A DNA stretch of 58,492 bases, the filler included, from Dugesia japonica (lineage: Eukaryota), in NCBI GenBank assembly GCA_001938525.1. It is 5 parts of 5 records of this genome, joined end to end, with 100 filler letters (N's around TTAATTAATTAA, not from the genome) between each part and the next. Parts side by side here need not be neighbours in the genome. Positions count along the whole stretch, not along the records: positions 22,395 to 31,773 come from MQRL01484017.1; positions 31,874 to 41,200 come from MQRL01561067.1; 3 more parts are not named here. One strand, 5' to 3'. Position 1 is the first letter of the stretch. Each line of letters begins with the position of its first letter. The notes beneath the pieces were generated by a model that worked only from the letters and a program-made list of their open reading frames with translations, did no database searches and was not told the DNA's origin. The position numbers and the translations under genes were made by a program. This document shows, one piece after another, positions 4,780-53,400 of this stretch.

Positions 4780-5010
4780 TTTGAATATAAATTTAAAACA
4801 TTTTGTTATTGTATTTTGAAATTTTGTTTAAAATTTATTTTGATAAACTATTATATTTTATTTTAAGTGTCAATTATAAAAATTTTAAATTTGCTTGAAA
4901 AGACAAATTGATGTTGTGTTTTTGTTTGTCTTGTGTTTGAAATAAATTTTGGATATGAAAAGTGTTAATTTTTAAAATGCAAAGAAAAGTGTTACAGAAT
5001 AATCTTACAC
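4780..5010. repeat. Dispersed repeat with an inverted copy at about 17140-17350
   Basis: TTTTGATAAACT...TTGAAAAGACAAATTGAT matches the reverse complement of the 17140-17350 segment. Confidence 0.7.
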
Positions 5011-16622: not shown

Positions 16623-19600
16623 TATAACACTTACATCTTAAAATATTTAATCCCTTAACTTAAGATTGATTTTTTAGGTGAATGATGTAAAATTGATTTG
16701 TTTTTATTATAGAACTTGATTTTTCAGATGATTTTCTTAATAAATTTTAAGTATTATTTTTTAAAAAATGTAATATGAGTGAGCACATACCAAAGACGTT
16801 GTAAACATACTTAAGATTTAATCGTTAAATAAATCTTTTTGTAATCTAAATTTTTTTTACTTTATCAATTAAAATGCTAATATCTTTTAAATCACATTTT
16901 TATTTTTTTGTAATTTCTCAATAATTTACTAAAGTTTAAATGGTGACAAACTGTGGAAATAGTACAAAATTCTAGAAAGTTTTATTGAATATTAAAATTT
17001 TGATAGTGAATGATAATACAATTAAACATGTTTTTGTGCGGTTTTTTCTACGATTTTTTTATATGACACACGAAAAATTGCATAAAAACTGCACAAAAAC
17101 AAGTTTTAACAATCGATTTTATTAATTTAGGTGTTAGATGAATCTGTAACATTCATCTTTGCATTTGAAAATTGAACACTTTTCATTCTAAGATTTATTT
17201 AAGACAACAACAAAAACTCAACATATCAATTTGTCTTTTCAAACAAATTTAAAGGCTTTATAACTGAGACTTGAACAAAAAATATTAGTTTATCAAAATA
17301 ATTTTTAAATAAAATTTTAAAATACCATAGCAAAATGTTTTAAAGAAAATTACAAAAATTATATATTTAATTAATTTATTTAATATATTTCAAATTTTCT
17401 ACAAATTATAAATTTAAAGTTTAGTTTTTTGTAAACATTTAAATACGTAAAATTNTTATGATTATTTAACAAATTTATTTTATGATTTAATTAAAAATAT
17501 TTAATAAATAATTTTAACAATTTCGTTTCAATATACATAAAATTTAAAATTGCTTTTAAAAACTACTTTAATTAAAATTATTTATTAAATATTTTTAATT
17601 GTATTATCAAATACAAATTAATATATCATTCAAAAATTTTACTAAGCATGATTCTGTTTTCAGGTAAGTAGAAGTTCATTTAACACTAAATGTTAGTAAA
17701 TAAAAATTTTTGATCTAAAATTTCGACAATTTTTCTTTAAAAAGTTAACATTTTTCTTGTAAAACACCAATTATTTGGTTTATAATAAAAGCAATTACTC
17801 GATAAAACATTGAGACTAAACGCAACAAGGACCCCGCTAGATGGAGGAGGCAATGTGTAGAGAGTATTATTGTTTCCCAAATTTACTGAAATTGGTTTTC
17901 GTTCTTTCATTTCATATTTGAGGAAATCATCTTTGGTAATAATTCCACCTTCTGCTGAGATTTCAGCAATCATTTTATCTACTAATGATCCATTTTTCAT
18001 AGCATATGGTTCATTAGATAAAATTCTCATAGTATTTGCAAGTTTTGGGATTTTTATGATGTCACCAAATACTTTCGGTTTTCCAGTTTTGGAATCAGTT
18101 AATACTTTTCTATATGTTTAAATATTTAAATTAAAATATTTTTTTAATATCTAACCTCAATTCTGAAAATTCAGATGCTGTTGCAGTTTTAAAAAAATAA
18201 TCAATTCCGCTTTGTATACTTTTTGAAACATAAAACCCATTCGTTAATATGTCGATAGATGGTTCGAATAATACTTTCCATTCCAATTTTCCAAATCTTT
18301 TATGAATTTCGTAATAACCAGAAACCAATCCCATTACAGCAATAGATTTACCACCTTTCACAAAAATGAAAAACGTCATAACTTCATTCTAATTATTCAA
18401 TAATATTATTTTAAATTTTCTATGACAGTGTTCTCAGAATCTCAGAATGAACAAGATATGGAGTAACATGCATAAACTCCAACTCGCCTAATCCAGTCCT
18501 TTAATCCAGTTTAATCTTCTCAAATCTAATTTAATTTTATTGTAATTGTGAGGTAAATTAGATAGACAGATTGATTCGGGGAATTTTTTTGTGGCAAATC
18601 AATAAAAGAATAATAANNNNNNNNNNNNNNNNNNNNNNNNNNNNNNNNNNNNNNNNNNNNNNNNNNGTAATTATCCCAAACTTTTGTGGTTTTCTCATTT
18701 ATTTAAAAATACAATTTTAACTGAAACAATCTTTTTTAAAACAAATTTATCTTAAATTTCTATTTCACATTATGACTATTTCTTCAATTTCTGTGTGTGT
18801 ATGAATGTTGCCAATATTACAGAGAAAGAATAATATCAAGGACATTAGAATGATATACGGTATCTTCTATTCCGGCATAAAATGACCAAAACTATGAAAC
18901 AGTTAATAGTATTGTTAAAGATACTTGAAGTCAGGTGAGATTTTGCATTCAAACGCGAGGTTTATAGGCATTCTAAACTAAGTTTAGAAGCTAACAAAGC
19001 ACTGCTTACCATTGTGAACCAAGAAGGTACTGAGACATTAGTCCAGTTTTCTAACCGGACAACTTTAGTACTGAAGTATCCAAAAGTGCAATTGACAAGT
19101 CACTATGTTAATTCTACTATATTCTAAAAAGAGTCACATTATTGCCTGTATGGTGAAAATGTGAAGCTACAATTAATGAAAGAGAGGTTTATGCCTCTAA
19201 CTATCAGACTTTTAAAACAAGTAATGACAATAAAAACTTGATTTTTCTACATGAGATTGGATTTGTGGTTTTGACAAGACCAAGTTGTTGTCAAAGTAAA
19301 AGTGGATAATCCGCTTTCATTAGTGTGTCTGTTGTCAGAAGTAAAAATATTTCTGTTGTACATGCCATTAACAAATATAGTATGATTTACCATAAGGCTC
19401 ATAAGAAAACTGTCAATGGCGACCGCTTCAAGGAGTCTTTGTGAGAGATAAAATCTGATTGTAGAGAAAATGGCATATTAAATCAAATATTCATCATGGA
19501 CAATACCAGAACTCACCATTACAGAGGATTATTTGATGATTCAGAAATTTCAGATTAAAACATTAAATATCTTCTTACTTATTTCAATTTCCTGAACACA

Positions 19601-28518: not shown

Positions 28519-29460
28519 TTAACCAAATGTTGTTACTCGAGAATCTTGATTTATTTCTTTGTTACATCGTAAAAGGTTGTAAATTTTGGTTTTTATGAAA
28601 GCATTTCCAGAAATATAAATGACTGGATTTATTAAAATATTTAAATAAAATAAATAGTACATTAAGTAACTCATGCCTGGAACTGCCCCTGAATTTGATA
28701 AAACAATTGGTATCAAACTTATGGTATATAAAAGCGTTATTATAAATATAAGTCTTCCAAATTTAATAATTTTTTGAAATGCCTTTAAATCCGTTTGGTT
28801 TTCTTTTTTCAATTTGCTATTTCCTATTTTCAAGGAATTTTTTGTTTTCCAAAAGAAATAAATAAAGAGGCTAATGTAAACTAAAATATTCGTTGATAAG
28901 AATATAAAGCATAATACACCATATGTAATTAGATAAAATAGTTTAAGAGATGTTTTTAGAGAACAGGCTAAATCAGTATAAAGTATACCACTAAAAATGA
29001 CATCACAAGAAATACCAATCACATAATAAATAAATATTATAATTTTCATCTTACCAACATTCCATTTAACAGTTGTGGGTAATATAACTGCCAAAAATCT
29101 ATCAACAGCCATGAAAGTAAGGGAAATTACTTCGTATCCTAAAATAACATTTCGAGGCGAAAAAAATAAAATAAGATAAGCGGAATCTGTTTTTGGTTCA
29201 TATTTAATCAAAAATATATTTACAATTAATATTATTGACATGGTAATATCAGTAAAATTCAGCGATTTCATTATAAAATTAAATGTTTTTCGTTTCCCAA
29301 GTATTCGATTATCATTTTTATTGTACTGAAAACAAAGATATATATTTAAAGGAAACCCAATTGAAAGGATGAAACCGTAAAATATAAAAAATTCCAAACC
29401 TGCATTGTCTCTATTGCCCAAACTTTGTAATGAAATGCAAATTGCCATTTTATTTGACAT
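28519..29460 (-). CDS. Single-exon class A (rhodopsin-like) orphan GPCR, 313 aa
   Basis: Intact ORF with about 7 hydrophobic segments: TM1 GFPLN, TM2 LNFTD, TM3 MAVDRF and TM7 INPVIY. Confidence 0.9.
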   Translation of the reverse strand: MSNKMAICISLQSLGNRDNAGLEFFIFYGFILSIGFPLNIYLCFQYNKNDNRILGKRKTFNFIMKSLNFTDITMSIILIVNIFLIKYEPKTDSAYLILFFSPRNVILGYEVISLTFMAVDRFLAVILPTTVKWNVGKMKIIIFIYYVIGISCDVIFSGILYTDLACSLKTSLKLFYLITYGVLCFIFLSTNILVYISLFIYFFWKTKNSLKIGNSKLKKENQTDLKAFQKIIKFGRLIFIITLLYTISLIPIVLSNSGAVPGMSYLMYYLFYLNILINPVIYISGNAFIKTKIYNLLRCNKEINQDSRVTTFG

Positions 29461-30219
29461 TCGATTAGAATTTTAATATATATGTAATAAGAACCAATAA
29501 ACGTTTAGTTTAACTAATTAGTATTTTAACTTTTCATAAAAAATAATTAAATTATAAAATTTTAATGTTTGTAATATTACAATGCTCTATTTTAACTTTT
29601 TAGAGAATGAAGTCAGTTAAATTTCCATTAAAAGACTACATCTAAAAATATTATTTTGATTAAAAAATCTAATTGCAGACATCAATAAGTATCAATTAAG
29701 TGGTTCAATGTAGTAATTTTTTGTACATTTTTGTTAATAAAATTCATAACCATGTTTCAGTTCAAAATCAAGATTGTGTAGCTATTTACAGTAAATTATC
29801 TTTTCAACAAAATTTTTTTTTCAACTAATTTTAACTTATGTCAACCAAAACTCAATCAATTAAATTTATGAAAGTGATTTAAACTTATTTTTTTCATTAG
29901 CTTTGTGAATACAGTAAAAGTAACAGACGCAAGGTCCAAGCTCTCCTCAAATTGTTGTATTTACCATAAACGATAATTATAAAGAGAATGTGTATATGAG
30001 ATGTAATAAGTTTTAATCACATTATAAATGTTCTGTAAGGCTCTCATAAGTGCCTCTGATGCATACANNNNNNNNNNNNNNNNNNNNNNNNNNNNNNNNN
30101 NNNNNNNNNNNNNNNNNNNNNNNNNNNNNNNNNNNNNNNNNNNNNNNNNNNNNNNNNNNNNNNNNNNNNNNNNNNNNNNNNNNNNNNNNNNNNNNNNNNN
30201 NAAATGAACTTTCATGATT

Positions 30220-30650
30220 TCACTTGAGCAATGAACTGCAGATTAATATTCGATCGATTAAACGTTTTTCATTTAAATAGTGTGGCACACAAATATCATA
30301 ACGAGACACATAATCCATCTTAAGCAAATGGTTTGAAATGGTCTTTTGAGATAGATTGACAATATTTGCAATCTCACGCGTTGTATAATATGGGTTTTTC
30401 TTAATCAAACCTACGATTTGTTCAGTCTCTGTCACCAATGGTCTATCTGAACGTTCACCATCTTCACATGTTATATCACCGACACGAAACATTTGAAACC
30501 AGTTCTGACATACGCGTTCACTCACGACACTTTCCCCATACACCTCACAAATTTTCATTTTGGTTTGCATTGAATTTTTTTTCTTTACGGAAATAAAATA
30601 ACATCAAACAACGAAAATATTGATTCTTGTTTTCCTATAATTTCAACTCA
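30220..30650 (-). mobile_element. Mariner transposase N-terminal half
   Basis: ICEVYGESVVSERVCQNWFQMFR...EDGERSDRP, TTREIA and ICVPHYL (WVPHEL-like). Confidence 0.9.
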
Positions 30651-31608: not shown

Positions 31609-33603
31609 ATAATAATTCTTTTTTTGAAAATTTTTTTTTTAAACAATATTTATTTCTTTTTGTCATTTTTTTAAAAATTATTATACATAAAAAATTCTCA
31701 TTATGTAAACAATTATGCAATCTATCTAATAAATCCAATTAATTAAAAACATTCAATAAAGATTTAGAAAGACNNNNNNNNNNNNNNNNNNNNNNNNNNN
31801 NNNNNNNNNNNNNNNNNTTAATTAATTAANNNNNNNNNNNNNNNNNNNNNNNNNNNNNNNNNNNNNNNNNNNNTCGTCCGCTCATTGGTTCCTGGAGTCA
31901 GATTTTCTCGAATCTTGGAAATGATCGCACCACAACTTTGCTTGCCTTCATGCGCGATTGATTGGCAACGAATTTGGAAAACCAAATTCGTGTCGTCAAG
32001 TGGATGCTCTAGTGATACTGTCTGGTTTTCCAACTTATTCATCGCTTGGAAAAACCAGACATAAACATGACTGGACCATATTAAGTTAACTTCTAAATAA
32101 TATTAAACGCTTATTAGCGTTATTTATAATAACGATAATGGGTCGTAGAGGGCCTTTTTACATTTTATTATAGTATTTTCTATTATTTTTATTATTTATC
32201 TTATTATTTCCTACTTGTGCATCCAAATTTGGGTCTTCTAAGCCCAATTTTCATTTTTTCCCGTTTCAATAATAATCGTATAATAATTATAATAATAATA
32301 ATTACATAATAATAANNNNNNNNNNNNNNNNNNNNNNNNNNNNNNNNNNNNNNNNNNNNNNNNNNNNNNNNNNNNNNNNNNNNNNNNNNNNNNNNNNNNN
32401 NNNATTTTCGTATTATTTGGGGATGCTTTGTTAGCTCTTTTGCACTAAAATTATATGTTCTAGCCCAACAATAGTAACACTTATGAAAATATCAAGGGAA
32501 AAATAAATCGAAATAAATAGAAAAAATAAAAAAAGAAAATGATTAGTAAAATTAAATATAAGAATAAAGAAAGGAAAAATAATGAAAAAGTAATGAGTTT
32601 ACATTAAACAAAAAAGAAAAACAAAGAGTAAAAAAAGTGGTAGCATTTGTCTTAAAATAAAAAGTGTAGAAAAAGAAAATATATATTTAAACGATATAAA
32701 AATTTTAGAGAATAAATAAAAAATGAACGGCTAATAAATATATTCAAAAGGCGAAAGTTTACTTAATTAATTCAAAATGACGAAGAAAACCAAACGAAAG
32801 TACAAAAACAGCAAAACTTATATAATAAAGGATGGCTCATTATATTAGATAGTTAGAATTTGAATGAAGAAAATAGTGTAAATAAGAGCAGACCAAAATG
32901 TGAATGGAAAGTGGTCTACGGAAGTCAACAATCAAAATACCATGTATGTAAAAAATGACAGATAATAAAATAAAAAACAATAGCGTAAGATTATAAATTC
33001 GTAAATAATGAACAAATAACAAAAAATTTCAAATTAAACAAATGAAGAAAAGAGTTGAAGCAAAATATAGTATTAAAAATATTATATAAAATTGGGAAAT
33101 CAAAAATAAATTCTTAGTATTAAAAATGGGTTACTGAAATAATTTCGACAATGAAATAATTTGACGTTGAAATTAATTTTGTTAATCATTTTGAGATTAA
33201 TTTTTCTATAGTTATTTCAACAGTCATTAAATATAAAAATTCTAAATAATTACGAATGTGTGAGAGTATTGTTTATATTTATTTCATAGGCAAAATTATT
33301 TCATTTTCAAAATTAATTCATTTCAGTAACCCGTTTTTACACTTTGAATTTATTTTTAATAAATTTGTTGGGGTCCTACCTGAGATGAGTGAAAAAGATT
33401 GTGGCTGGGGAAAAACAGCCCTCAGGGGACCCGTCCAAGAATTTGCCCTGACGCCCCTAGGTCAGGTACTCAGCATATGGTGGTTGACCTCACTCTTAAT
33501 GNGGTGCACGCCCATAAGCCTTTTTATTCGGGTTTACCAGTTTTCCCTTAACATACACAAAAATTTAAGCCAGTGATACTTGAAACATTTATTACAATAA
33601 TAT

Positions 33604-33867
33604 TTACAATTCGTCTAGTACGCTGAGGTCCAACCACTGGTCTGGGTTGGTAGCCAAAAAGTTGAACACCGCGATATCATCGTCGTCGTCCCATTGAATC
33701 ACATCTGGATTACCGATCTGACGGGAAAGGTCAGCGATATATTGTTTTAAAAAGTCTATCTTTCTAAGCAGTAGTTGCTTGTTTTCTGTTCCAGGGCTTT
33801 GGTTTGGGCCACCAAATCGTTTTGTTTTCGAACTATCAAATCCAACTTTTTTATGAGTTTGTCTCAC
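33604..33867 (-). CDS. Cassette ORF E, 87 aa, with KKVGF and an acidic/hydrophobic C-terminus
   Basis: Open frame with no ATG that begins at CCCAG|TG. AATAAA lies at 33593-33588. Confidence 0.55.
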   Translation of the reverse strand: MRQTHKKVGFDSSKTKRFGGPNQSPGTENKQLLLRKIDFLKQYIADLSRQIGNPDVIQWDDDDDIAVFNFLATNPDQWLDLSVLDEL

Positions 33868-33986
33868 TGGGCGAGATGCCTAAGAAGGGCCTGGTCTGTT
33901 TTACGTTTTAAGTGGCGTTCTAGCAATAGACGGCGCATGATACGGTGACATCTCCTCAGACTAGTCGGGAACACGATTCGAGGCAC
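33864..33986 (-). CDS. Cassette ORF D, 40 aa, Arg/Leu-rich
   Basis: Begins at the strong acceptor TTTTCTTTAG|TG. Its stop overlaps the start of ORF E. Confidence 0.4.
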   Translation of the reverse strand: MPRIVFPTSLRRCHRIMRRLLLERHLKRKTDQALLRHLAQ

Positions 33987-34102
33987 TAAAGAAAAATTAT
34001 AGTACAGTCGGTGAACACCAAATTTACAATTCGAAGAAACCAAGTAAAAAATATGCAAATAAATAATTTATTAAAGTCAATCAAAAATGTAAACATGATA
34101 AC

Positions 34103-34462
34103 TCAGGAGCTGTTAGTCTGAGTGCTTTTATCGATCAAGAGGGGAGTCAAAGGGGTAGCTGCCCTCAACTTCAATATATTTTCCAATAGTTGATTCTCAC
34201 GCTCCTGATAAGATTTGATAGTTTCAGTAAAAGTTTCGACCTGTGTTTTCCATACCCTCTCTTGATGCTGGGTGGCGTCTGCTTCAGATTTATAAGACAA
34301 GCCTTTACGCTTATAGCGTTTAACCTTGGCTTCTGCTGCCGCAGTCTCCGCTTCCCATCGCCTTTTAGCGAGCCGATACAAATCCCATGTGAGCTCTATG
34401 TCCTCACTGGTTTCACGTAACTTTTTATTCGGGGCCTGGGATCTACTCAATGATGAATGCAC
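34103..34462 (-). CDS. Cassette ORF C, 119 aa, coiled-coil-like protein ending in DKSTQT
   Basis: Open frame with no ATG that begins at TATTTCAG|TG. AATAAA lies at 34072-34067. Confidence 0.65.
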   Translation of the reverse strand: MHSSLSRSQAPNKKLRETSEDIELTWDLYRLAKRRWEAETAAAEAKVKRYKRKGLSYKSEADATQHQERVWKTQVETFTETIKSYQERENQLLENILKLRAATPLTPLLIDKSTQTNSS

Positions 34463-34757
34463 TGAAATACAAACACATTAAAGGATGGCAGACTCTTAGC
34501 AGATTTATAATTTTAATAAATGTGGACAGACTGGTTTACCATGGACAAAAATAACAACGAGTGGAGTATGTAATATTTAGTCTGTGTAACAACCTTACAT
34601 TGAAATATTATTATTTTTTTTTTAACATGAAGACTATGAAATCCGATAACATATGGTTATTAAAGCAGAAATTTATTTTAATCGACGTATAAAGATATAA
34701 CATAAATTAACAGTAAGTAAGACACCTATTTATTCACATTCTACACAGAAATAAGGT

Positions 34758-35114
34758 TTATTGGTTATTATTATTCGTGACAACAATGGGTGCTGTGTTT
34801 TCGATATCCGTCACTACGGTTGGCTCCCTAACCCCCCAGAGTAGATTAGATATGAAAGCCTGCACCGCGGGAGTTGGAGCGGGAGTGGGAGGCCGATTAT
34901 GGAAAGATGTCGCTAATGTTCGATCAGGACCTTTCCAGGTTTGGTAACGCTGACGCTCGCCAAAGTCTTTTATGCGCGCTACGATGGATTCCACTGGGGG
35001 CAAATTTGACCTGTCGGCCAAGATGCCCACGTCACGATTGTGGGTGTTGTGGTGACAGCGGAAGATTATTTGGCTAGTTTGTCTATCGATTACTCGTTCC
35101 CATATAGATTCCAT
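34758..35114 (-). CDS. Cassette ORF B, 118 aa (MESIWERVIDR...), with a Pro/Thr-rich segment
   Basis: ATG lies 2 nt after the acceptor TTTTTTCCTAG. GC-richer than the flanks. AATAAA at the stop and at 34734-34729. Confidence 0.65.
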   Translation of the reverse strand: MESIWERVIDRQTSQIIFRCHHNTHNRDVGILADRSNLPPVESIVARIKDFGERQRYQTWKGPDRTLATSFHNRPPTPAPTPAVQAFISNLLWGVREPTVVTDIENTAPIVVTNNNNQ

Positions 35115-35258
35115 ATCTAGGAAAAAAACTGAATAAATAGTAAAGTTAAAATAAAACAAAATTACGATATCAGAAACAATTAATAACAATAATAATCAAA
35201 ACATTGCAAAGGTTTATACACATTTTATTTTTTTCATAGGGAAATTAACCAGCCAAAA

Positions 35259-35441
35259 TCACTCTTTATCTAAATCTACCCCGTCGTCCGAGGGGAACAT
35301 TTCTGCTAGACAACAGAGGTCTGTCTCATCTGGGTGCTCTATTTTTCCTCTGGCCAGTAGGTGAGCCATTAACTGTTTTTTCCGACTAATTTGCCGCTGC
35401 TTTCTAATCCAACGTAGGGTATGATATAATTCTGCTGGCAT
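35259..35441 (-). CDS. Cassette ORF A, 60 aa, with a basic N-half and DLCCLAEMFPSDD
   Basis: ATG lies 1 nt after the acceptor TTCTTTAG. AATAAA at 35229-35224. Confidence 0.55.
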   Translation of the reverse strand: MPAELYHTLRWIRKQRQISRKKQLMAHLLARGKIEHPDETDLCCLAEMFPSDDGVDLDKE

Positions 35442-37144
35442 GCTAAAGAATGAAATCATTAACCGCAACATTCAACCCATGACTTAGTTCCCTAAAACTA
35501 ATAGTAGTCGCTGACTATTAATATCACTATGGGGTTTACGTCATTAAAAAGGTAATACCTAAAGGAATGATATTAATTTTGATTGTAATAGTCTTGTCAA
35601 GGAAATAATAATTGGTCTAACATCATCAATAATAACCATAAAAAGTAGTACCACAACATCAAGCAACAGGAACTGAATCATTTTGGCGTTAATAATATAG
35701 CAGAAGGAAAAATATTCCCCATAGTGTTCAAAAGCATGAGAATAATAATATTGACATCAGGAATGGCACCAATGTGGTTAATGGGAATCATAATTTTAAA
35801 TTTTCCATTCGATAGATATTATATTAAGAGGGTGATGCTACTCCGGATAAATTACTAGTAATAACACTAATGGTATAATTATATGGTGATTGTCACAAAA
35901 ATAGTGATAAAAATAAGGCCATTACTAATAGTAGTAATAATGATGATTTTAACAATAAGAAAACTATGAATCATAATAATTATAATAATTATAAAATTTT
36001 ATTTTTAAAACTTCTGCACGTCATCGTTGCTTGGTGATTTTCCCCTTTGATAACTGATTAAATTGATTTGCAACATGTCGGGGTGTGTAGGATTAGTCTC
36101 GGGTATGTGTGCAAGATCAGAGTTGAGCAACAACATCCAGTCAACATAATGAACACACACTCTAATAGTGTGCCTTTCGAGTTGGTGCACATGAAAATTC
36201 TACTGCCAGTTACAATTTAAGTGATGGATCACTGTTTCCTAGAAAAAATCATGAAATGCGATAATTATTTCCATTCCATGATAAAACTTGCTGCCATTCC
36301 GTATCAGTGAAATTCAGCCGATCAGAGCCCGTGATAGTCACATTGGCAGATACTTATCATTAAAACCTGTGGATTTATTATCATTTCGAAACAACTGAAG
36401 TAGTTTATTGTTTTGTTAAATAAATTTTTGAAATTTTATTTTTCTTCAATCACAATTTTGGCATTAAATTTTTGTTATAAAATGATGAAACACAAAAAAG
36501 GGAAAACAGGATGGATTCAACTTTTAGTTTATATTTTTACCACACAGGTAAGTATAAATTTGTTCAGATCTAAATTACCGGGTTTTAAGATATTTATTTA
36601 TTAATATTTTCTTTAATTTAACGAAGGTTAAAACGGAATCTACCGTAGAATGTCATTTAAGAGTCTAAGATTTTCATTTACTTTTCCATTATCATTCAAA
36701 GTTAACAGTAGTCTATTTAATATAAATTAATACGTTTAATTGACTAAATAATGAATTGAGATTTTAATATAAGTAATTTATTAGAAATAATAAACATCTA
36801 AAATTTTTCGATCATACAATTCTTTACATAATAAAATAATAATTTACTTCTTGATATCAACTGCGAATTTCTGCAACGGGTTTGGTTCAAGATTAAAGTT
36901 TCTCTTCCGATTTCGAGTGATGACTTTTCGAATAGATCGAAGTGAATTCTTCTTTTTTCTTTTTATAATTAATTTAATCAGAATCAAAAAGGGTGCTACT
37001 TTGATTTCCTTTTAAGGCGGAATTCAAATTTCTTCGTCCGCAGTTAATTAGTATAATACTATTCCTTCTCTTGATAATTTTTCGATTATGTGGTTTTGGA
37101 GTTCACAATTGTTATAAAAATTTGTTGTTTTTGATGCTAAATTC

Positions 37145-37165
37145 GGGGGTCCTTTTATAGGATTT
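37145..37165 (-). promoter_or_regulatory. TATA box (CCTATAAAAGG) oriented toward the cassette
   Basis: Consensus TATAAAA at 37159-37153 in a GC-flanked context, about 650 bp inside the right terminus. Confidence 0.55.
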
Positions 37166-37819
37166 TCTGCACACCCCAACTTCTTCCAGATTCGTTAGTT
37201 ATTTTTAGATCAACATTTTCTGATTTTATTGGTTCCAGTGCCAATTTCCTAAATATTTTTTCGGAATTTTGGAGTTACCATTGGCGTCTATTTTTGGACT
37301 GAGACATGATAATCGTGTGTTTGTTTTATTTTTATTTTTAGATCTCTTATTGGCCCGATCTTGGAGACCCTGCAGCAATCTTATGGCTGGTGGTAAGTTT
37401 TTTCTTCCTGGCAATTTCGATGCATCTTATTATTTTCCTTCTGTATTTTCTTACCCGGATTCTCTCCGATTTTCCTGAACGGAGTTATTCGGGTAAAACA
37501 GAATTTTATCTAATTTTGCTTCTTTTTATTTTTAAAATTAATTAATATTCTTTTCTGTTAATTGATTATTTTCCATATTGCTTTTCTTGGTTTTTATTAT
37601 TAATTAAATAATTCTTCTTAATTCCCAATATTGATGTAAGTTGGTTTTATGTTACCTGGTTCTTCATATCTATTTCTGATTTTGTTTTATTCTTTTCTAA
37701 TGATTATTTCGCGCTTTGCCTTTGTTATTGGTAAATATGATGGTCCTGCCGTTCTTTTCTGTTGATTCAGTCTTTCTGGTCTTCTTTCGTTTTTTAACGG
37801 GTGTTTCACCCCAACATAT

Positions 37820-39060
37820 TTAATGGCTGCTGAAATAACTATAGAAAAATAATTGTGTATTTTTGTTTAAAAATATCGATATTTTTAAATATAAAATTTA
37901 TATTCTCAGATTATTTGTCGAAATATGATGGATTATTCTTAGATCTTTTTAACTTTAAAACAATTGTGATAGTGAATAAAAAGTATGAATAATTGTAAAG
38001 ATCTCAATTTTACTAATTTGACAAACAACGCATCATTTTATTTGCTGAAGAAAACAATGTACCCGGGAATTTTCAGAATGTACGACGATGTCGAAACATT
38101 AATCTGAAAACAACGAAATATTTTGATCTATACGGAATAAAAAAGGGCTGTAAGATTTTGATTGTAGTTGCTTTCATAGACGCTCATACCAGTTTGGGTA
38201 CACCCGATCTCGTTCGATCTCGTTTGCGCCAAGTCTTTCAAGGTTCTCTTAGAATCATTTATGTGCCTTAGAAGAAGTTAATCATTAGATCATCGATGGG
38301 ATACTCCAATCAGCTAGTAGAATCTGATCCTGCTAGTTGATTTCCCTACGACATCCGATCTACGATGCCCAGTAATGGGGTTTCTTCGCTTGAAAGGGCA
38401 ATGTTAATCTCGGCGTTAAAATACGTGTAGTTCACTACGAAAAATTTTTGAAAAAGAAGACGAAGCATTTGGATTTGAAGAAAGATTCTGAAAGCCTTTC
38501 TTTTGGCCATCAACAATGCTTAAAGATATAGAGGGGCTCTAAATTATCAACGGAATGGAGAGTATGTGAGTATCTATTAGAAGAAGATAGAAGATATGGT
38601 AGAGAAGTTAATGGCTCATAACATGGAACAAAAATAATTAACAAAGGAGCTTATAATGAATAGTTTCAATGACAGGAAGATAAAACATAAGATCAAATCA
38701 GGGAAAATATAAAAAGTATTATATGTATTTCAAACAATGAAAAAGTAGAAAGACATAAAAGACGAAGTAAACATTGAAGAAATAAATGTAGTTCGTAACT
38801 ACAGAAATGCAGAAGTCCAGAACAAATAAGTTTCAACAAGAGTTGTAACGAAGGGATACAACAAAACAGAAACAACGAAAGACGAGAAATCACATGTTGA
38901 ACTTGTAACAAATAAGTCATGGAAGCAGAAATTGTCAAGAAAGAAAATAAGTCCAATACATGTTAGTCTGAACAATACTTAAGAAGAGACTGTTGCAAAG
39001 TTAATTGCTCAAGATGCAAAAATAAAGAACATTACAAAGGTAGACTGTTATACAAATATG
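37820..39060 (+). mobile_element. Decayed Gypsy 5' region and gag, paralogous to 57250-58290, interrupted by an unrelated ~255-bp insert at about 38183-38440
   Basis: Shares CAACGCATCATT, GTTGCTTTCATAGA and GCTCTAAATTATC with the other copy. Knuckle remnant ITC*TCNK*V. Confidence 0.8.
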
Positions 39061-40559: not shown

Positions 40560-41200
40560 CGACCCATCTTTGTACAGTGCCGTTGATCAACCAGCAACAT
40601 CGATTCGTCAATATGATATACAAAAGCACCTTGCAACAATTTTTTGGGACGTGAAAGAAATTCTGCTGTGTGATGTACTTTCTGAAGGAAAAAATATAAA
40701 CGCAGAAATTTACTGCACTCAGTTGGACAAACTCGTAGATGCGATTCGACAAAAGAGACGCGTCTGCTCGGAAACAGTTTTTAAAATTTCCATTTTCTCT
40801 TAGACAACCCTCGACCGCATACGGCACGATTAAATCAAGGTATGCTTGCTGATATCGGTTTTACGGTATTGTCACATCCACCATACTCCCCAGACATTTC
40901 CCCATCCGACTATTACCTGGTTTCTTCTATGAAAAACTCACTTCGTGCGAAAAATTATCACTCTGCTCAAGAAGTTAACAGGGATTTGGAAAACTCGTTC
41001 GCTTCAAAACCTGTAGAATTCTATGTTAACGGCATAAAACAACTTTCAAAACGCTGGAAAAAGTGTGTGGACCTTAAAGGGGACTATTTTCAACATTTCA
41101 GATACACGAGCGAATGATGTTTGGTTTATATTTCTCAATTTACATGTTGTCTTTATTGGTGAAATAAATATTATTTTCTATCGGACAAGACTTTCGTTCC
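40560..41200 (+). mobile_element. Mariner transposase C-terminal half
   Basis: LATIFWD, INAEIYCTQL, DNPRPH and HPPYSPDISPSDYYL. Confidence 0.93.
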
Positions 41201-41459: not shown

Positions 41460-42710
41460 ATACTGCACTGTCCTCTATGCTACTTAATGTGTAATGCCCA
41501 TATGGTACTGATATGTTTTTGTTAGTCCACACTCGCTTATCGTCGTTATTAATGAGTGCAACTTTTTTGTTTTTTTAAACTATATAGCTGGTGGTTTATC
41601 GAACTAATTCTAAATTGATCGATTGAGACTGGCAAATTATTTTCATAACAGTCAAGGTATGACTGATGTTTTAAATTACTATTCTTTATTGTTATGCCTT
41701 TTGCCTTCATTGTTGTTTTATCACTCGAAAGGCTATAACGCTTCGGTCTCAAGGAAATCCATTCTTTGTACTTAACCTCTTTACTTTCATCCTTAAATTT
41801 TCCAATAACAGAAATGAGACTGTTACTGTAAAGGGGGTGGCTTGTGTTGTAATTTGAGGTGTCCAACAACTGATTTGTCCAACAAAATCAAACCGGTTAG
41901 CTTTTCTAAACTTATATCTACAAGTTCAAGGAAAATGCTATCTGTATCGCTGGCTACAATATTTATTTTACAATGCTCTTCTCGACGATACTTTTCCAAC
42001 TCAATGTACTGTAGTTGGTACATTATTAACTTTGAGAGGTCAAGTACCGTCGGTCCAATGTAGCTCGGACGATCTAAATATACAATTTCCTTATTAAAAA
42101 GGACAGCTATCAGATCATCATCTATTTTGATTGATCTTTGAAATCCAGGTTTCGATGTATATGTCATTAACTTCTTGGTTGAATTACACAAGCGCAAATT
42201 TATTCGTTTCTTCATGTTCTCCACCGTGTTCACATATAGGCTATTGTTGAGCAGTTTAGATTAATTTTTTTCTAATTCCGTTTCTGATTCTGACTGCAAT
42301 TTGGTATTCACATCGATATATTTTTGGAAAATTTGTCCCTGTCTAAACCGAACTCCTCTATGAACCTTTGTAACCTCCACACCTAATTCTATATACATCT
42401 GTAGCAGCCTCCAGGGAATTATGTAGGCGTTCTTCGGATAATACGTTAACATTAATTTTTCACTTTACTTCCTGGAGCGCTTTGGTGTTGCGCTGCTACT
42501 GGAGATCGTTTAGATAATCCTGTATTTCTGATGGAATCGCTATATCCACCTCCAATGAGTATCCGTATGATAACGAGTCAAGGTCCGCCCTCTTAGATTC
42601 TTCTAAAACTTCATCTAATCCATTGTGGGCCCACTCTAAATCCGCATAGGGCAGCTTCTGGCTAATGTCCATCCATACAGATTATTAATGTCGATATATA
42701 ATAAGTACAT
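41460..42710 (-). mobile_element. Polinton/Maverick (adintovirus-like) protein-primed DNA polymerase B pseudogene, C-terminal half
   Basis: Motif A YIDINNLYGW, motif B KLLNNSLY..TVEN, motif C VASDTDS, then GKFKDE, LRPKRYS and KAKGI, with frameshifts. Confidence 0.92.
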
Positions 42711-43149: not shown

Positions 43150-44139
43150 CTTTTGTTCCTTCACAAACAAATATCTATCAAAAATATACAAACAATTATT
43201 TACAAATTATTGATAATGAAAGTTAATATTAATTACAAGGGAAAAGTGTCTCAAGCTATAACAAGCAAGATGAAATTTCCAAGTGGCGAACCTTCGCAAA
43301 TTATTGACAAAAATGGACATATATAATTATATTGTTCAAATCAGGAAATTGTCGAATAATGGGGGGCAAAAAACCAATTGAGACAGATAAATTACAATAT
43401 GATATTAAAAATTTTCGATTGCAATCTTTAACAATTGTCATCAATATAGGTGTTGTAATAAATTTATATAAATTGGCAAAGATAACAAAATGCTGATTTG
43501 AACCGGAATATGATCCCTTTATGTGTTAATATATTCTCACCAGGAAAGATATGAATTATGGAGGATATGTGGACAATATACTATCGGATTTGTATAATTT
43601 AATAGATAAAATATAGTCATGTAAATATATTATGTTGTGGTAAGTTAAAATTATTTTTTATAAATTATTTTAATAAAATATGCTACGTTGCAGTATTATA
43701 AATTTTTATTGCAATCTCATTGGTTTAATTTCATTTAGAAATTTTTTTTATAACATTACAAATTTTAATTTAATCATTTTAAAATTTGAAAAACAAAATG
43801 AGTGAATTTAATAATGAAATAAAGAAAGAATAATTCAGAATAAAGCAAATAACAATCAAAGAAGCAATCTACATATTTCTAAGAGAAGCTATTTGAAACT
43901 GTTTCTTATCCACTTGAAACCAGACATTAAGTCTTAGGCATCCACGCTAAGCGCATAGTCTCATAATTTAATCAGTCAAATAGCATTCTGTATTATTAGT
44001 AAAGAATATTTGAATTTCAATTAGTTTTGTAAAGTTTAGGTGGATGGTAGACTTATTTATAGATGAAAATATAGTGAAAGTGGGCGTTAGGCTAAAAAGA
44101 AGTTTGAAAGTCACTGATCTAGACGATATTCTCATGTTT

Positions 44140-46270
44140 ACCGAAACAAAGAAGCAACACTTTAAAATATACAATAAAGTATTGACAGAAATTAAGAATT
44201 CTAGTCTTTAAGTTATTTCAGATAAAATTCAATTCATGCGAAATGAGATTAAATTTTTGTGACACGTTATCAGTAAAAAAGGTGTCAAAACAGATCCAAT
44301 TAAAATAGAAGCAATTAAGAACTTTCTTAAACCAAGAGGCTTTTTAGGAATTTGTAATTATTATCGCAAGTTTATTAAAGATTATTCGAAAAAAGCTAGA
44401 TTGTTGGAATTATTGTGTAGTGGATCGAGTAACAAGAAAATTGAATGGGCGAACGAATTAGAAGAAGTTTTTAATGGAATGAAAGAAGCACTAACGATGT
44501 TTCCAATATTATGTCTTCCAGATATAAATAGAGGATTTATTTTGGACACGGATGCGAGTTTCGATATAATTGGGGCAGTACTTTTTCAAAAGGACAACAA
44601 TGAACAAGAAAGAGTAATTGCATATAGGTCACACGCAATGACGAGTCACGAGAAAGGATATTGCACTATGCGGAAAGAATTACTCGCAATTTACTACTTT
44701 TGTATTCATTTCAAACATTACTTATATGATAAGAGATTTATCCTCAGCACAGACCATAAAGCCATTACTTTTATGCTAAATACCAAGAAGCCGAATACAT
44801 CACAATTTCAAATCTGGATTAATTATTTGAGTAGTTTAGATATAAAATTGTAATATAGAAAATGATCGTTCCATACAAATGCGGATATGTTGTCAAGGAG
44901 TAAATGCGATACTTGTGCACAATCTCAAATGGCTCATGAAGATCCCAAAAGTTGAAAATTAAAAGCAATGATGTTAAATATAGTAGATATTCAAGAGAAA
45001 CACGGTAAGTTTGGAGAAAATGATGAAGGAACATAGATACCTGATGATAAAGTAGAAGAATCGTGATGATGGATCGTGTTTTGTGTCATGCTGGAGCAGA
45101 AAAGGTAGCAGCGTATATGAAGCAAAAATATAACGCGAAACATTTGTGGAGAAAAGTACAAGAAGTGGTTCGAAGCTTTATAACACGTCAGTAAGCTAAA
45201 GTTTTGACAACAAAAACGAAGGAAGAAATGAAAAAGACTCAGCCAGCCGAAATGTTTGAATTGTTATTTATAGATGTGTGTGTACCACTGCGGGAGACAA
45301 GAAGTCGTAAAAAATATGTTCTCAGTATAAGAGATCAATGCAGTAAGTAATTGCCGTGATAGCAATGGCAAAACAAATGTCAATCATTGTCTTAATAGCA
45401 ATGAGAAAACAAGATGAAGATACCATATGGAAAGCATTAATAGAGAAGTGGATATTAAAGTTCGAGTGTCCGAGAGAAATTCAAGTTGATTGTGGAAGAG
45501 TATTTGAGTTTAAATCAATGAAAGATTTTCAGCTAAACATGAAATTACCCTCAGGTTTTCAAGTACATATCATCATAACACAAATAGACAAATCGAGAGA
45601 CAATTTAGAACTATGCGAGATATGATAAATGCGAAACTTAATGAAAGGAAGACCTTAGATTAGGCTGATGTATTGGCAGGTATAGAATTTACCTGGAATG
45701 CTACAAAACTGAAAACTATTGGAAAAAGCCCAGCTGAAATCGTATTTGGGAAGAGAATAAGCAGAAAAATATGGTACAAAACAGATTCTCAAAGAGAGCA
45801 CAAAGAACATGATAAAGAGATATTGACCAAAAGACAATTCGAGGTTGGTGATGAGGTCTTAGTGAAAGTTGAAACCAGAATCAAGAACCAAGATCGTTTT
45901 GAAGGACTCTAAAAGGTCAAAGGAAAGGTTCATGACAGACGTTATATCCTTGGAGATACAAACGGAAAAAGTGTCTAAAGAAACGCAGAGAAGATCAAAT
46001 AATTTCTTAAAAGGGTGGATGTGAGTATGTTTTGAAAAGGAAGTTGAAATTTTTGTGCTTTGATTGAAAAATTTTATTTTTGTAAATTTTTTTATAAAAC
46101 TGCAAATTACAAATTAATTAAGAAGTTAAAATAATTATTTTGAATGGAAGTTTGATCTAAAATTTTGCAATTGTTATTGAAATTGTTTTTTAAAAATCTT
46201 TAAAGTGTTTGTTTGAAATAATTTTACTAGGAGTTGAATTTTAATGTTGATGATCCGATGAGTACTCAAA
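44140..46270 (+). mobile_element. Decayed Gypsy pol (end of RT, RNase H, integrase) with PPT and start of the 3' LTR
   Basis: GVKTDPIKIEAI, FILDTDAS, TDHKAI, LCHAG, IQVDCGRVF and GDEVLVK...FEG, then AAAAGGGTGGA|TGTGAG at about 46010-46025. Confidence 0.93.
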
Positions 46271-46276
46271 ACTCAT

Positions 46277-48810
46277 CTAGCATGCTCTATGAACGATTTC
46301 AATCGTAGATCTACTTTTTAGATTTCCCGTTTTTAGATCCATTGCTATCCCATCTAGCTGTTCAAGAGCATCCATTCCAATCAAACATAGTACTGGGCTA
46401 TCTCTCATTACCAACACATTTTGATTTATAACTCTGCCTACTATAATTAGTTCGACTTTAATCAACCCATTGATATTAAGCGCATTTTTCGATATTGAAC
46501 GGATGACTTCTTCCGAAGTTGTCATATTAATTAGATCTGCATTATCTAAAATTCCCTCTGAAATAATAGTTACACTAGAACCTGAGTCTAGTATTGCCTT
46601 TATAGAGAATTCATTTAGCTGCAATATCTTTAGTATAAACTCTTCTTATTCTTTATTCTCCATAATGGGTATATCTCACTTAGCAATCCCATTAAAAATT
46701 CTTCGCACTCGATCTGATCCCTCACATTACAATGGTTTTCTGAGATTTCCATCATCTCATCAACGATTTGCAAAAGTCCACAGTTATCGCTTGTTCTCTG
46801 AACTTTTGTAAAACTTGAGTACGGATGTACTTTAAACAACACCTCTGGCGTTTCTCGAAATTGGCAATCCTCTTCAGTTTTAATCTCGGATTCTTTTATT
46901 ATTTCCTTTGCCACGCGTTTTTTGCATTTGTCTGTACCAATAATTGTATACAATTCTGTTCCCTACTGCCTCATTTTGGCATATTCAATATATCATCCAG
47001 TATCATTAATTTTACTCGCTAATTCACATTGTAATTTACGTAATAAAATCAACTCTGTTGCTTGAGGTACTGTCTTCATTATCTCGTGATATTGTAAAAT
47101 CTTAACTTCATTTTCCATACTGCGGATCATTCCTAGATCCATAATATAAGCATCCATATACTCCAAAATTTGATTTGCGAATTCTAGTTTAATAATTCTT
47201 AATTTTTCGGATTCACCAATCATTTGAACTAAGTCTCTGACTATACTATTGTCACTAATAGTTTTTGTGAGTTTCTCTCCATTGTTATCAATAATCACTA
47301 CACATACATCTTTTAACCACGAAATTTGCGCATTTCTTGTCCAATCTTTGTCATAATGAGTTTCAATTCCGAAATGTGTTGGGCTCCATTATTACAGTTA
47401 TAAATACATTTCTCCATCACATTTTCCAATTTTTCTTGAGAAAACTTCAGTTTTATTAACTTCTGCAAAATTACTGCAATCTCCTCTATATCTTGTTCGC
47501 AATTTTCAATATTAGATGATAAATGTGAGTAAAGAATTTGGCTTTTATCTACTACGACATCGTTTACCATTTGTGAAATTTGGCCATGAGGATTTGGTAT
47601 TTCACAGTCGATTTGTGGCTCATTTTCTAAAAATATCATTGAATTTTAGTTATCGCTATCTGAGTCCTTTATGGTAGTAAATTTATCCCACTTTCGTTTT
47701 ATATCGTCTAATTCTGCCTCGACTTTTATTCTGCTACTATTATCGGGTGAAAAAGTTGCATTAACTGTAGAATTATTATCAATTTGACTGATTTCTTTAA
47801 AATTGGTTTTTGGAATCGATCAACATTATTTGGACATGATCTTGCAATATTTCTGACATGAATAACATCATTGTTGGCCTTTAGAATTTAATTTATTTCT
47901 TTGCGGAGATGGAAAGCTGAATACAACTACGTGACTTTGGAGTGTAACAATATCTAGATAGATGTCCCGTTACATTGTATTGTTCTCCTGTTTTCACTAT
48001 TTCCTCCATTGCCCATTTTTGTACAGCATTGATTTGCGGGATGTCCTTTAAGTTGACACCTAAAACACGTCACTGTCCTTTTTAAGGCATTTTGTTGAAA
48101 TTGCTGTTTCTCTCGAATTTGGGAAATTGTCTATAATTACTTTGCGACGGTGGATTGAATGTTCTTGGTTTGAAATTTGGTCTCTCTGGTTCAAGTCTCT
48201 GAAAATTTTGCCACCTTAGTGTAATTTGCTGTAGAAGCATTTGTTGTCACCGCAGAATTTACTTCAATCCGTTTAGTCTTTTTAGCGAGATCATCAAAAT
48301 CTTGATAATCTGCTAAACTAAGAATTGTTCTATTACTTGGTTGTGCTCCCATTAGAAATTGATCTTGCAATACATTTTTAATATGATCTCCCTAGTTTTC
48401 TCGTAATCTGAAGACTTTTTCGGCCAAAGTACTCAACTCAAAAGCGGATTTATTCACCGATTCTCCTTCATTTTGTGCTCAATTAAAGTATTTCTTTCTC
48501 ATAATTCTACTCACATCTTCACTGACTAATTTTACGGCTAATGCATCTTTGCAATGTGCCCAAGTATCCAATTGTGAAGCCTCTAACTGACTTTATGCAT
48601 CTCTAGCATCTCCTTTTAGATCTAATGGCAATTGAATTACCATAATTTTTTCTGGCCATCCATAAGCTCTACTATACATATAATAATCTCACATAAAATC
48701 CACAAAATTTACGGCATCTTTTCCATATTGTGATACAGGGAGTTTTAGACAATTTGTTCCATTAACTGCATTATTATCTTCCATATCTCTGAAATTGCTC
48801 TCCATATTGC
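46277..48810 (-). mobile_element. Decayed LTR-retrotransposon gag-protease
   Basis: Gag N-terminus (AYGWPEK), CCHC knuckle CFRCQLKGHPANQC and protease AILDSGSSVTII...CLIGMDAL. Confidence 0.88.
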
Positions 48811-50140: not shown

Positions 50141-50491
50141 AATACACACAAANNNNNNNNNNNNNNNNNNNNNNNNNNNNNNNNNNNNNNNNNNNNNNNN
50201 NNNNNNNNNNNNNNNNNNATTCCTTTCTATCAACTCACTTCTTATTCTATTCCCATTTTTACATAACATTTACAAAGTTATTCAAAACGTAACTTTTTAT
50301 TCATTTCTATAAGACTATATAATGTGTTTATAATTTTGTATTTATTTATAATATTAACAATTTGAACTTTATGTCTACAAAACATAACTATCATTTACAT
50401 TATAAAGTTATATTAAACCTACCAATTTTTGTTATTCTTATTCAAGTAAATACCTATCTCAAGATTTGTTATTAATAAGTATATTTTTTAG

Positions 50492-53400
50492 GATAATAAC
50501 CTTGTAAGACACTTAGATGCTTGTGAAACAATGGGAAATGCTACAACTATATGCTCTGATAAAACAGGAACTCTTACTACAAATCGTATGACTGTTGTTC
50601 AATGTTACATTGGAAATAAGTACTATCATGATAGTTTATCACCATTAACAGATTTGCCAGAATCTATCAAAGATATAACAGCTTCAGCAATAACATTAAA
50701 TTCCAGTTACACTTCAAATATTATGGTAAGATTGTTATAAATTTTTATTTTCATGTATGGTTGATTTCAGTTTTTTGTGGAAAAGACTATTAAAAATAAT
50801 ATAAAAATATAAAAATTTTTAATAAGACTATTTAAATAATAAATCAAGAATAAAAGATGTAATTCAACATAATTCTTAATAAAAAAAATTAAATTACCGT
50901 AATAACATTTTAGCAACAACTCCTTATAATTCCGCTTTATAATATAATTCTGCGTTTCAGATGCCTAGTAGATTAGAAGTTTGGAATATTTGAAATACTA
51001 AATTTCCGTTCAAGTTTAAGTTTAAAATAGATGAATTAATTGGTGCTATTCTTTTACAGAGATGATGGTATTATTTCCAGTATGTGGCATTATACCCATC
51101 TCAACTATGAGGAAGTAAAGTACAGACAGTTTTTTATTGTTTTAATAAAGTATAAAGCAGCAGAAATTGGAATTTAAAATTGTAAAATCCAGACATTATT
51201 GAATTGTGTAAAAATTAATTAATTTGAATTTGTCTTATGAATGATAGTTGTAAGTGTATGCTGGATTATTTTTAATTATAATTATTCCTCTAATTGAAAA
51301 TTAAATTGTACTCCTAATTATTATCTTGTTTCGTAATTATTGTATTATTGTAAATTTTTATCAAGTATTAATTTGTAAGTTGTTTGTAAAATCTTTTTTT
51401 AATAAATATTTTTGGTCCTCATTCAATGTATTTATTCCAGTTATTTTATTTACTGTTAACATGCATATCTTAAATGAACAGAAATATGGTAACACTAGCA
51501 ACACTAATTTATAAACAAAATTTGGAACACATTCCATATTGTGTCTTGATTTCAGTACTAAACATATTAGGCTGGTAAGAAACTAATTTCCTTTTTTAAC
51601 TTTGAAAATGGCAAACTGAAATAACTCAATGACAAATAAATTACTAAATTATTTTAATTATGTGTGTGAGTTCCGTGACAAAATTGAATCTAGAGCAGAT
51701 GATTTTAATACGACTGGGATAAGAAAGCTAGTTTCTCATTATTATTAAGCATACGTTGATTGTGATCGTTGCTTTTGTAATTTATTAAGTTTAGTTGCCT
51801 TTGAGTTATTTCATTTTAAAATTGAAAGTCAGAAACGGAAATTATTTTCTTACCAACCTAATAATTATATAAAAAGGCCAGTGGTGTATGTTTGTTTTTT
51901 GATTGTATGTTTATGCGTGAAGCTCAATATTATTCAACAAATTTTACAAAATTTCAAAAATTAGGATCTTTTATATAGTATCTTTTATAATTTTAAATTT
52001 AGACATGAAAAATTCAGTGTTATATGTTCGTTTGTTTGTTTGTACTTGATTCTCAATAATACTCAACAAATTTCAAAATCTTTCAAAAATTTTTATTTTA
52101 GGTTTTAAAATTTCAATTGATATATTAAAAGCCCATTGGTGTAAGTGTATTCCTTTGTTTGTCCACGATGCTCAAAATTTTAAACTAAAGCTAAAAGACG
52201 AAAACATGCCGACGAACTTGATCAGACAACTTTCTGAAGTAATTTATGTGCTAAATAATGCGGGTGGTTAGTGGAAAAATCAATGCTTACAAGNGATTCC
52301 TTGGAAAACAGAAAGAAAGAGAGTAGGCGGAAGACACATGTCGAGTAAAATAAGATCTCTTGATCACGCCCCGAACATACAAACGAAAAATACAAAAATG
52401 GGACGCCTAAAAGGCGGGCAATTGACGGGAACCATTTTAATAGACATCATTTGCATGCTACATCGACGGTAAGTATATATCATTTTATCTTATTTTTTGT
52501 AAAACTGTAATGATGCATACAAACATTAATTTAAAATTATTCTGCAATTGATTTTTTTCTATCCGCATTCTTTTATCACGGATAAATATTAACGCTCATA
52601 AATATTTTTTTTAAGATTGGTAAAAAAATTTAAAATTCAAAGAATCACTTTTCTATTTTAACTACCCAATTAAATGCTTATAATGATATTTGCTAAATTA
52701 TATTGAATAAAGTAATTGATTATTTAAATATTATAATCATATTGGTTTTTTGTGATTTAGTAATTACATACTTTGTATTTTAGTATTACGCTAATTATTA
52801 ATTATTGGAATCAATATTTGAATTTTTTGTATAATCCATATAACAATAGTAAAATAATTGACATTTTTAGTTTCCTGAAAATTCTAAAGAATTGCCGAGG
52901 CAAATAGGAAATAAGACTGAATGCGCATTACTGGGATTTGTGACTCTACTTGGAATAAATTATGAATTACTGAGAATAAAGTGGCCCGAAGAAATGCTTT
53001 ACAAAGTTTATACTTTTAATTCTATTAGAAAGTCTATGAGCACAGTAGTAGAGTTAGATAATAATATGGGTTACAAAATATTTACTAAAGGAGCTTCAGA
53101 ATTAATTTTAGAAAAGTAAGTTGTAAGAATATAGTAATTTTATTTTATTATTTATCAGGTGTGCCTGGTTTCTTGATGAAAATAGTGAAGTAAAACCATT
53201 TTCAATTGATTATCATAAAAATGTTAAGAGAATAATTGAAAAAATGTCAAATGAAGGTTTGAGGACCATATGTATTGCTTACAAGCGTTTTTTAAAAGGT
53301 GAAAATTTCAATTGAATATTTATAATATTAGGTCTACAAATAAATAATCCAACTTTTTTATTATGTTATATAAGTAGTGCAATTAGTTTAATATTCCAAT

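Follow-up and report, generated by a model that had tools for sequence, protein, structure and literature searches.

A multi-copy element of Dugesia japonica carrying an array of small modules, each with a splice acceptor-like site, an open reading frame and an AATAAA motif

Results

Modules of the cassette

We analyzed a stretch of 58,492 nucleotides from Dugesia japonica (assembly GCA_001938525.1; parts of five records joined by filler), referred to below as the window. The part taken from record MQRL01561067.1 contains a mobile element of 4.45 kb, probably a solo long terminal repeat (LTR), whose minus strand carries a cassette of small open reading frames (ORFs) A, B, C and D/E, each preceded by a sequence resembling a splice acceptor. 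The coordinates of the element and its parts are given in Table 1, in which a slash marks a predicted splice junction.

Table 1. Features of the element in the window.
Feature	Coordinates	Strand	Remarks
Whole element	33366..37816	-	4,451 bp, multi-copy, probably solo LTR
Upstream end	37808..37816	-	TGTTGGGGT, 9-bp inverted repeat
U3-like promoter region (putative role)	37160..37807	-	48% A on the minus strand, high copy
TATA box	37152..37159	-	CCTATAAAAGG, the element's only TATAWAWG, on the cassette strand
Candidate non-coding leader exon	36848..37135	-	~288 nt, no ATG, last base A; start set by distance from the TATA box
Candidate splice donor	36842..36850	-	GAA/GTAAAT, junction 36848/36847; 6/9 consensus positions
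Middle segment	35554..36358		Low-copy, decayed, holds the possible broken module; X2 depth 27-57
Possible broken extra module	36003-36238	-	Strong acceptor 36238, one internal stop, stop 36007, AATAAA 36003; low copy
Module A	35259..35445	-	Acceptor TAG/C, own ATG 35441, 60 amino acids, N-terminal half basic
AATAAA of A	35224..35229	-	Followed by a T/GT-rich stretch
Module B	34758..35119	-	Acceptor TAG/AT, own ATG 35114, 118 amino acids
Two AATAAA of B	34729..34762	-	34762 (overlaps the stop) and 34734
Module C	34103..34464	-	Acceptor CAG/TG, no in-frame ATG, 118 codons past TG
AATAAA of C	34067..34072	-	
Module D/E	33604..33988	-	Acceptor TAG/TG at 33985; basic start, heptad-like middle, acidic and aromatic tail
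AATAAA of D/E	33588..33593	-	
Subterminal core	33393..33444		52 bp, very high copy; X2 depth 138,279 at 33410; loose ends 33393, 33444
Downstream end	33366..33374	+	TGTTGGGGT on plus, ACCCCAACA on minus

A first-pass annotation had described five modules here, each composed of an acceptor, an ORF and an AATAAA motif. All five acceptor-like YAG sites (35442, 35116, 34461, 33985 and 33866) are present with the bases it quoted, and the ORFs A to E behind them measure 60, 118, 119, 40 and 87 amino acids, respectively. AATAAA motifs do follow A, B, C and E, but not uniformly at the claimed distance of 10–30 nt: counted from the first base of the stop codon, they start at 32, -2, 33 and 13 nt, and the stop of D has no AATAAA behind it. 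The annotation had cautioned that this motif is common in AT-rich DNA; 25 of 149 stops of long ORFs outside the element are followed by one at that closeness. The ORFs form GC-rich islands beginning at the acceptors, with T-rich spacers between them, and their GC content at third codon positions (GC3) is 0.42–0.51 compared to 0.20–0.21 in two host genes. At the acceptor B, C and D are in reading phase 1 and A is in phase 2.

We scanned the 58-kb window for a pyrimidine-rich YAG followed by either an ATG within 6 nt or by TG, at least 55 codons and an AATAAA near the stop, using criteria set after the data had been seen. The scan returned five matches, all within 33588–35450: A, B, a weak site inside B, C and E. 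In the rest of the window no match was found on either strand. When dinucleotide shuffles were scanned in the same way (3 x 2000), 1993, 1989 and 1992 runs contained no match and the maximum was 2, against 5 observed. The acceptor-ORF-AATAAA modules are thus real and far above chance. An internal acceptor in B at 34993 was dropped, having just 4 T in 20 nt.

Split start codons, completed by an A spliced onto a TG directly behind the acceptor, had been proposed for C, D and E. Only C would strictly need one, A/TG, as its frame contains no ATG. D carries a spare internal ATG in frame at 33938, and the site of E is not shared by other copies. C and E had also been said to lack any ATG, which is correct for their own frames; out of frame there are ATGs at 34388, 34358 and 34253 in C and at 33704, 33694 and 33680 in E. 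Within the window, TG stands directly behind 34 of 430 acceptor-like sites.

E is probably no module of its own, which probably leaves four. The acceptor of E has 6 T in 20 nt, compared to 10–13 for A–D, and no AT-rich spacer ahead of it. Its TG consists of the first two bases of the stop codon of D (33866–33864), and the expectation that other copies would keep YAG/TG at this site was not borne out: position 33866 carries another base in 1541.9 of 1631.1 depth in X2 (40 contigs) and in 25.7 of 25.7 in X1, two of the public sequencing runs described below. Since the TG of E belongs to the stop of D and other copies differ at 33866, the two ORFs probably represent a single gene that is interrupted here by the stop at 33866–33864 and by a frame change at ~33800–33760. 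The frame of D stays open for 35 codons beyond its stop, and the D–E region forms one continuous GC island without a spacer at 33866. About 20 nt upstream of the acceptor of D, at branch-point distance, two adjacent bases (34004–34005) differ in nearly all other copies.

Searches for homologues of B and E found none, and B had no hit among PDB sequences. C, compared with 1.84 billion representatives, gave one weak repetitive match (E-value 3.8e-4, 32 residues), which we took as coiled-coil noise and rejected as a homologue; in viral contigs C had no match. No Pfam family scored above cut-off for any of A–E, and PHROGs and Pfam scans, the only comparisons made for A and D, gave sub-threshold or weak matches. 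Recognition by the Atlas was low. An 18-nt motif led to 13 metagenome loci, which were judged to be chance as similarity ends within 26 nt. From its single sequence C is predicted to fold into a two-helix hairpin (helices 9–52 and 59–101) with a predicted local distance difference test (pLDDT) score of 74.8. Its heptad score was reached by 13 of 500 shuffles; those of D and E are not above shuffles (156 and 50 of 500). Foldseek with the model of C found no match at E<=0.001 in PDB or BFVD, and the model of B is uninformative (pLDDT 39.9). By eye the ORFs are charged, with no Gly at position 2 and no clear membrane segment in A–E, and none of these ORFs of 40–119 amino acids has an Env match. 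By analogy with MDG1 sORF1 we guess that the products, basic and coiled-coil in character, regulate the element or host silencing, probably in the nucleus or the cytoplasm.

Ends and relatives of the element

Within the window TGTTGGGG occurs solely at 33366 on the plus strand and at 37816 on the minus strand. The element thereby has ends of the TG...CA type with a short (9-bp) inverted repeat, as expected of an LTR. Its flanks, AATT and TATT, form a 4-bp near-duplication with 3 of 4 bases equal, in AT-rich DNA. The TATA box at 37159 and the AATAAA sites lie on the same minus strand, a statement at the level of motifs only. The window contains no second copy of the element, and the element contains no ORF above 145 amino acids. 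A search of Rfam with the downstream end and the terminal core gave no match, and folding was no better than for shuffles. Around the element (33099–33365 and 37817–37850) lies a fold-back-like repeat that contains 17-bp subrepeats, and 37816–37850 is an inverted match to 33200–33234.

Four public runs (X1, X2, X4, X7) were mapped onto 33300–38100. We infer that X2 and X1 are DNA runs, since 30 of 30 and 27 of 30 bins were covered, spacers included. From X2 5,715 contigs were placed, 2,678 of them at 90–95% and 1,229 at less than 90% similarity. Contigs with zero differences reach a depth of 5.9–8.5, far below the summed depth, which is not a copy number and serves only as a rough guide. This summed depth differs strongly between blocks: it is 1,500–3,300 over C and D/E, 340–770 over A and B, mostly 27–57 over 35554–36358 (outside an AAT-like repeat), 150–340 near the donor and 1,650–7,800 over 37003–37807. 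Such values suggest that, depending on the block, relatives number roughly hundreds, tens or a few. Loose contig ends were found at 37816 in X1. One contig joins 33591 to 36682 and represents a copy without the cassette in which both element ends are linked. This joint was rejected as a processed copy: it starts with GT but does not end with AG, shows microhomology, and is read as a deletion. Members of the family have their ends in common and differ block by block in between. With these multiple copies and the TG...CA ends, the mobile-element setting proposed beforehand is confirmed; the cassette belongs to a multi-copy mobile element. The 33393–33444 core is common to repeat variants that also start with TGTTGG and then diverge, and it also appears in a few poly(A) reads, next to different flanking sequence.

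Next to these gross differences we classed 14 differences within ORFs (from 40 of 631 differences, the D/E break excluded). Twelve of them, at a share of at least 0.81, are all non-synonymous; the two at intermediate share (0.61 and 0.74) are both synonymous, with 22% synonymous changes expected. The pattern is a weak hint at a decayed copy of a constrained family, in which the high-share changes are this copy's own. Two extra bases occur just ahead of the ATG of A in 154 of 1015 depth. The present copy is probably a silent, decayed family member.

Promoter, leader and donor region

The first-pass annotation had postulated that one upstream leader ending in A is shared by all acceptors. A candidate TATA box, an ATG-free leader and a donor were indeed found; the donor is weak and no spliced read supports it. 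The stretch from 37216 to 36829 (387 nt) is the longest without ATG in the element, and only 2 of 941 gap-free ATG intervals on the minus strand of the window are as long. A base shuffle puts the probability that the leader itself (288 nt) contains no ATG at 0.007, and 3.5 ATGs are expected under a dinucleotide model. When 36848 was spliced in silico to the acceptors, A (+1), B (+2), C (-1) and D (-1) each became the first ORF. With 36682 or 36828 as donor, the same procedure fails for C and D. A host intron in the window is likewise preceded by an exon ending in A (AAAA/GTAAGT). A non-coding leader suits the cassette because the start of A is out of phase with those of B, C and D and because of the 2-nt variation before the ATG of A.

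On the plus strand opposite to this region (36500–37800) canonical GTAAGT donors are located at 36548, 37393 and 37636, together with T-rich acceptors at 37342 and near 37209; 37342–37392 resembles a 51-nt exon. Spliced antisense RNA possibly originates from here.

Other features of the window

Two host genes and a receptor gene were recognized elsewhere in the window: a fragment of gamma-glutamyltranspeptidase (17737–18390, minus), a plasma-membrane calcium ATPase (50477–55417, plus) with a ~44-nt intron that follows an exon whose last base is A, and an intronless, very AT-rich rhodopsin-family G protein-coupled receptor of ~310 amino acids (28519–29472, minus). The calcium pump is 61–72% identical to the matches listed. 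It is placed close to Schistosoma and a rotifer, but this grouping has no support (25 rows, after exclusion of seven partial relatives).

The remaining features are repeats. Fragments of Mariner transposases (HTH_48, DDE_3) lie at 30220–30603, 40785–41117 and 53316–53624. Decayed frames at 41500–42500 (minus) resemble a Polinton-type protein-primed DNA polymerase; they were recognized by eye and have no Pfam match. Decayed gypsy-like pieces occupy 44000–47650, with an RNase H on the plus strand (44263–44853) and an aspartic protease with gag-like frames on the minus strand (46277–47645). No link between these pieces and the ends of the element was found. A further decayed repeat is present in two copies ~80% alike and ~19.3 kb apart (38098–38912 and 57630–58209).

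Discussion

Most likely the element represents a solo LTR, of giant size (4.45 kb), from a gypsy-like retrotransposon, and its cassette can be read as a unit of accessory genes with one promoter, a shared leader and alternative last exons. We consider this full model, expression unit and LTR vehicle together, about evenly poised between right and wrong. RNA polymerase II would start ~25–30 nt below the TATA box, and the leader exon, ending in A at 36848, would be cis-spliced to one of the four acceptors of A, B, C and D/E. Each product would then be cleaved and polyadenylated at the AATAAA behind its ORF, so that the outcome would be four monocistronic messenger RNAs (mRNAs) with a common 5’ end. 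A and B would supply their own ATG, C would have to borrow the A of the leader to form A/TG, and D probably would do so too. Their relative amounts would depend on how splicing competes with the first poly(A) site. This mechanism is deduced from the anatomy of the locus.

Several observations weigh against it. The donor lacks G both at -1 and at +5, and each of three inspected host donors has one. As the leader consists of 44% A, an A as its last base is unsurprising by itself. The X2 depth in the donor bin is 151 compared to 1,500–3,300 over C and D/E, which implies that most C-bearing copies differ or diverge in the upstream exon; most C-bearing relatives do not match the donor region at 87%. 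Beside the element we see neither a second LTR nor a primer-binding site, a polypurine tract or gag-pol. A simple fusion of D and E is made less likely by the lack of a family-wide indel between their frames among 12 of 72 indels listed. Among the poly(A) data, 13.6 million records of X4 and 11.6 million of X7 (~25% of each run) placed 38 and 4 reads, all of them partial and mostly in AT-rich stretches or the terminal core, a result without a host-gene control, and ORF bins were at or near zero depth in both. The junctions predicted from a shared donor to the acceptors received no support, as no listed joint is backed by X4 or X7; a start codon at the splice junction works in silico and has no spliced read in these two runs. 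Finally, no CT..AC ends occur among 15 of 27 joints listed, so that no processed copy was seen.

The same element with the same alternative last exons might instead have a short coding upstream exon in phase 1 with its own ATG, which would make split starts unnecessary. This would agree with the phase that B, C and D have in common. Because the depth falls at the donor, we also do not see which upstream exon most C-bearing copies carry. The insect endogenous retroviruses ZAM and Beagle use a short peptide exon (PMC12992720). No ATG exists from the TATA box to 36829, A is in phase 2 with its 2-nt variation before the ATG in 15% of depth, and A and B have an ATG of their own within 2 nt of the acceptor. 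These points count against a coding upstream exon, which we regard as rather improbable.

Alternatively, the expression model may be right while the vehicle is a non-autonomous Ginger-like DNA transposon or the remnant of a DNA virus. DNA viruses typically use a single promoter for transcripts that differ in their acceptor and poly(A) site, and neither a partner LTR nor an internal region is present in the window. Ginger1 and Ginger2/Tdd have TGT...ACA ends and 4-bp target duplications, and the ends and the AT-rich 4-bp near-duplication of our element would also fit Ginger2 (PMC2836005). Ginger elements differ by an integrase-like transposase gene and by much longer inverted repeats (~40–270 bp in Ginger1 and 50–180 bp in Ginger2; PMC2836005), compared to 9 bp here with no transposase found. 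The U3-like end, where the TATA box lies ~660 nt inside the element, is reminiscent of an LTR. We assign a low probability to such a vehicle and favor the LTR.

We further considered that 3’-terminal exons of host or viral genes were captured in a Pack-type-like manner and are not expressed as genes. An acceptor, a coding tail and a poly(A) signal are the anatomy of any last exon, the blocks C–D/E, A–B and the middle segment differ in depth as units, and no RNA was seen. Against captured exons stand a GC3 twice that of host genes, the lack of any host-like homologue or domain among the matches, and the finding that in all four modules an ATG is supplied or completed no more than 2 nt from the acceptor, a property not required of captured exons. 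Capture is therefore judged unlikely.

An operon-like unit resolved by spliced-leader trans-splicing would explain arrays of acceptor, ORF and poly(A) signal with spacers of 100–300 nt, and flatworms do have spliced leaders. Flatworm leaders, however, end in AUG (PMC12582326), and the earlier remark that such a leader would be out of frame for C, D and E can be extended to all five acceptors, where its AUG would read just 12, 8, 4, 9 and 0 codons. We hold trans-splicing to be very unlikely. A chance arrangement in AT-rich repeat DNA could invoke the AATAAA motifs behind long ORFs elsewhere, the spurious fifth module E and the lack of RNA and homologues, and it is hardly credible given that none of 6,000 shuffles yielded more than 2 modules, that the remaining window has none, and that a helical hairpin is confidently predicted for C.

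LTRs are usually regarded as regulatory DNA, occasionally with a single ORF. Returning to the cis-spliced accessory unit, the LTR itself would be a small multi-gene unit, with a promoter, an AUG-free leader and four alternative last exons, each equipped with a poly(A) site, and one protein or more could be started only via a spliced A; in this strict form we propose it tentatively, as a possibility that may well prove wrong. If true, one LTR-sized element would express four proteins without known relatives by the logic of complex viruses. Each solo LTR would stay a self-contained expression cassette, subfamilies would gain or lose whole gene modules, and the many solo copies would be dispersed gene batteries and not inert scars. 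Ordinary ORF callers do not see A/TG starts, so that accessory genes of this type may be missing from many repeat libraries of invertebrates. Existing RNA data can be checked directly for the junctions predicted from 36848 to 35442, 35116, 34461 and 33985.

Comparison with known systems

In the adenovirus major late unit and in parvovirus maps, one promoter and a shared leader serve alternative acceptors that are paired with alternative poly(A) sites. The likeness of the element to these viruses is one of logic alone, with no viral core gene or homologue found.

Split starts, as in gypsy env, have been described before, and so have small ORFs that have a poly(A) site to themselves, as in MDG1; we found no published case of a battery of them inside one LTR-like unit. 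In the literature searched we found no element with several acceptor-ORF-poly(A) modules in one LTR-like unit; Repbase or the original description of Burro may already contain it. Ogre LTRs measure 1.9–6.5 kb, and Ogre and the planarian Burro (GYPSM1) combine multi-kb LTRs, thousands of copies and accessory ORFs (PMC6431247). Their extra ORFs are described for the internal region, a comparison made by description. Additional papers served as general context only (PMC5408684, PMC4558846, PMC10045372, PMC8532177, PMC11410931, PMC13238120).

In the MDG1/412 group sORF1 (~110 amino acids) and sORF2 (~70 amino acids) are located near the 5’ end, and a poly(A) site that follows sORF1 terminates a short transcript (PMC11952523). 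Common to both systems are small accessory ORFs and a poly(A) site behind one of them. The MDG1/412 transcripts differ in being unspliced and their ORFs in lying between LTR and gag; moreover, sORF2 of MDG1 is a membrane fusogen, and no such segment is apparent by eye in A–E.

The closest precedent for the start codon is found in Drosophila. The logic of the cassette had not been recognized in any invertebrate mobile element by the first-pass annotation; this does not hold for the split start, as the env start codon of gypsy is formed at the junction as AT/G, with AT from the 5’ site and G from the 3’ site (PMC2585583, PMC12992720). The springer subclade splices env from an AU dinucleotide (PMC12992720), and the Springer leader is a 297-nt AUG-free exon beginning in the 5’ LTR (PMC13097621). 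In gypsy and Springer (Metaviridae, errantiviruses) the start codon arises at the splice junction of a non-coding leader, as is predicted for our element. They differ in using one acceptor for one large Env downstream of pol and a split AT/G, whereas the element described here has four acceptors, four small non-Env ORFs each with an AATAAA, and A/TG, all between TG...CA ends.

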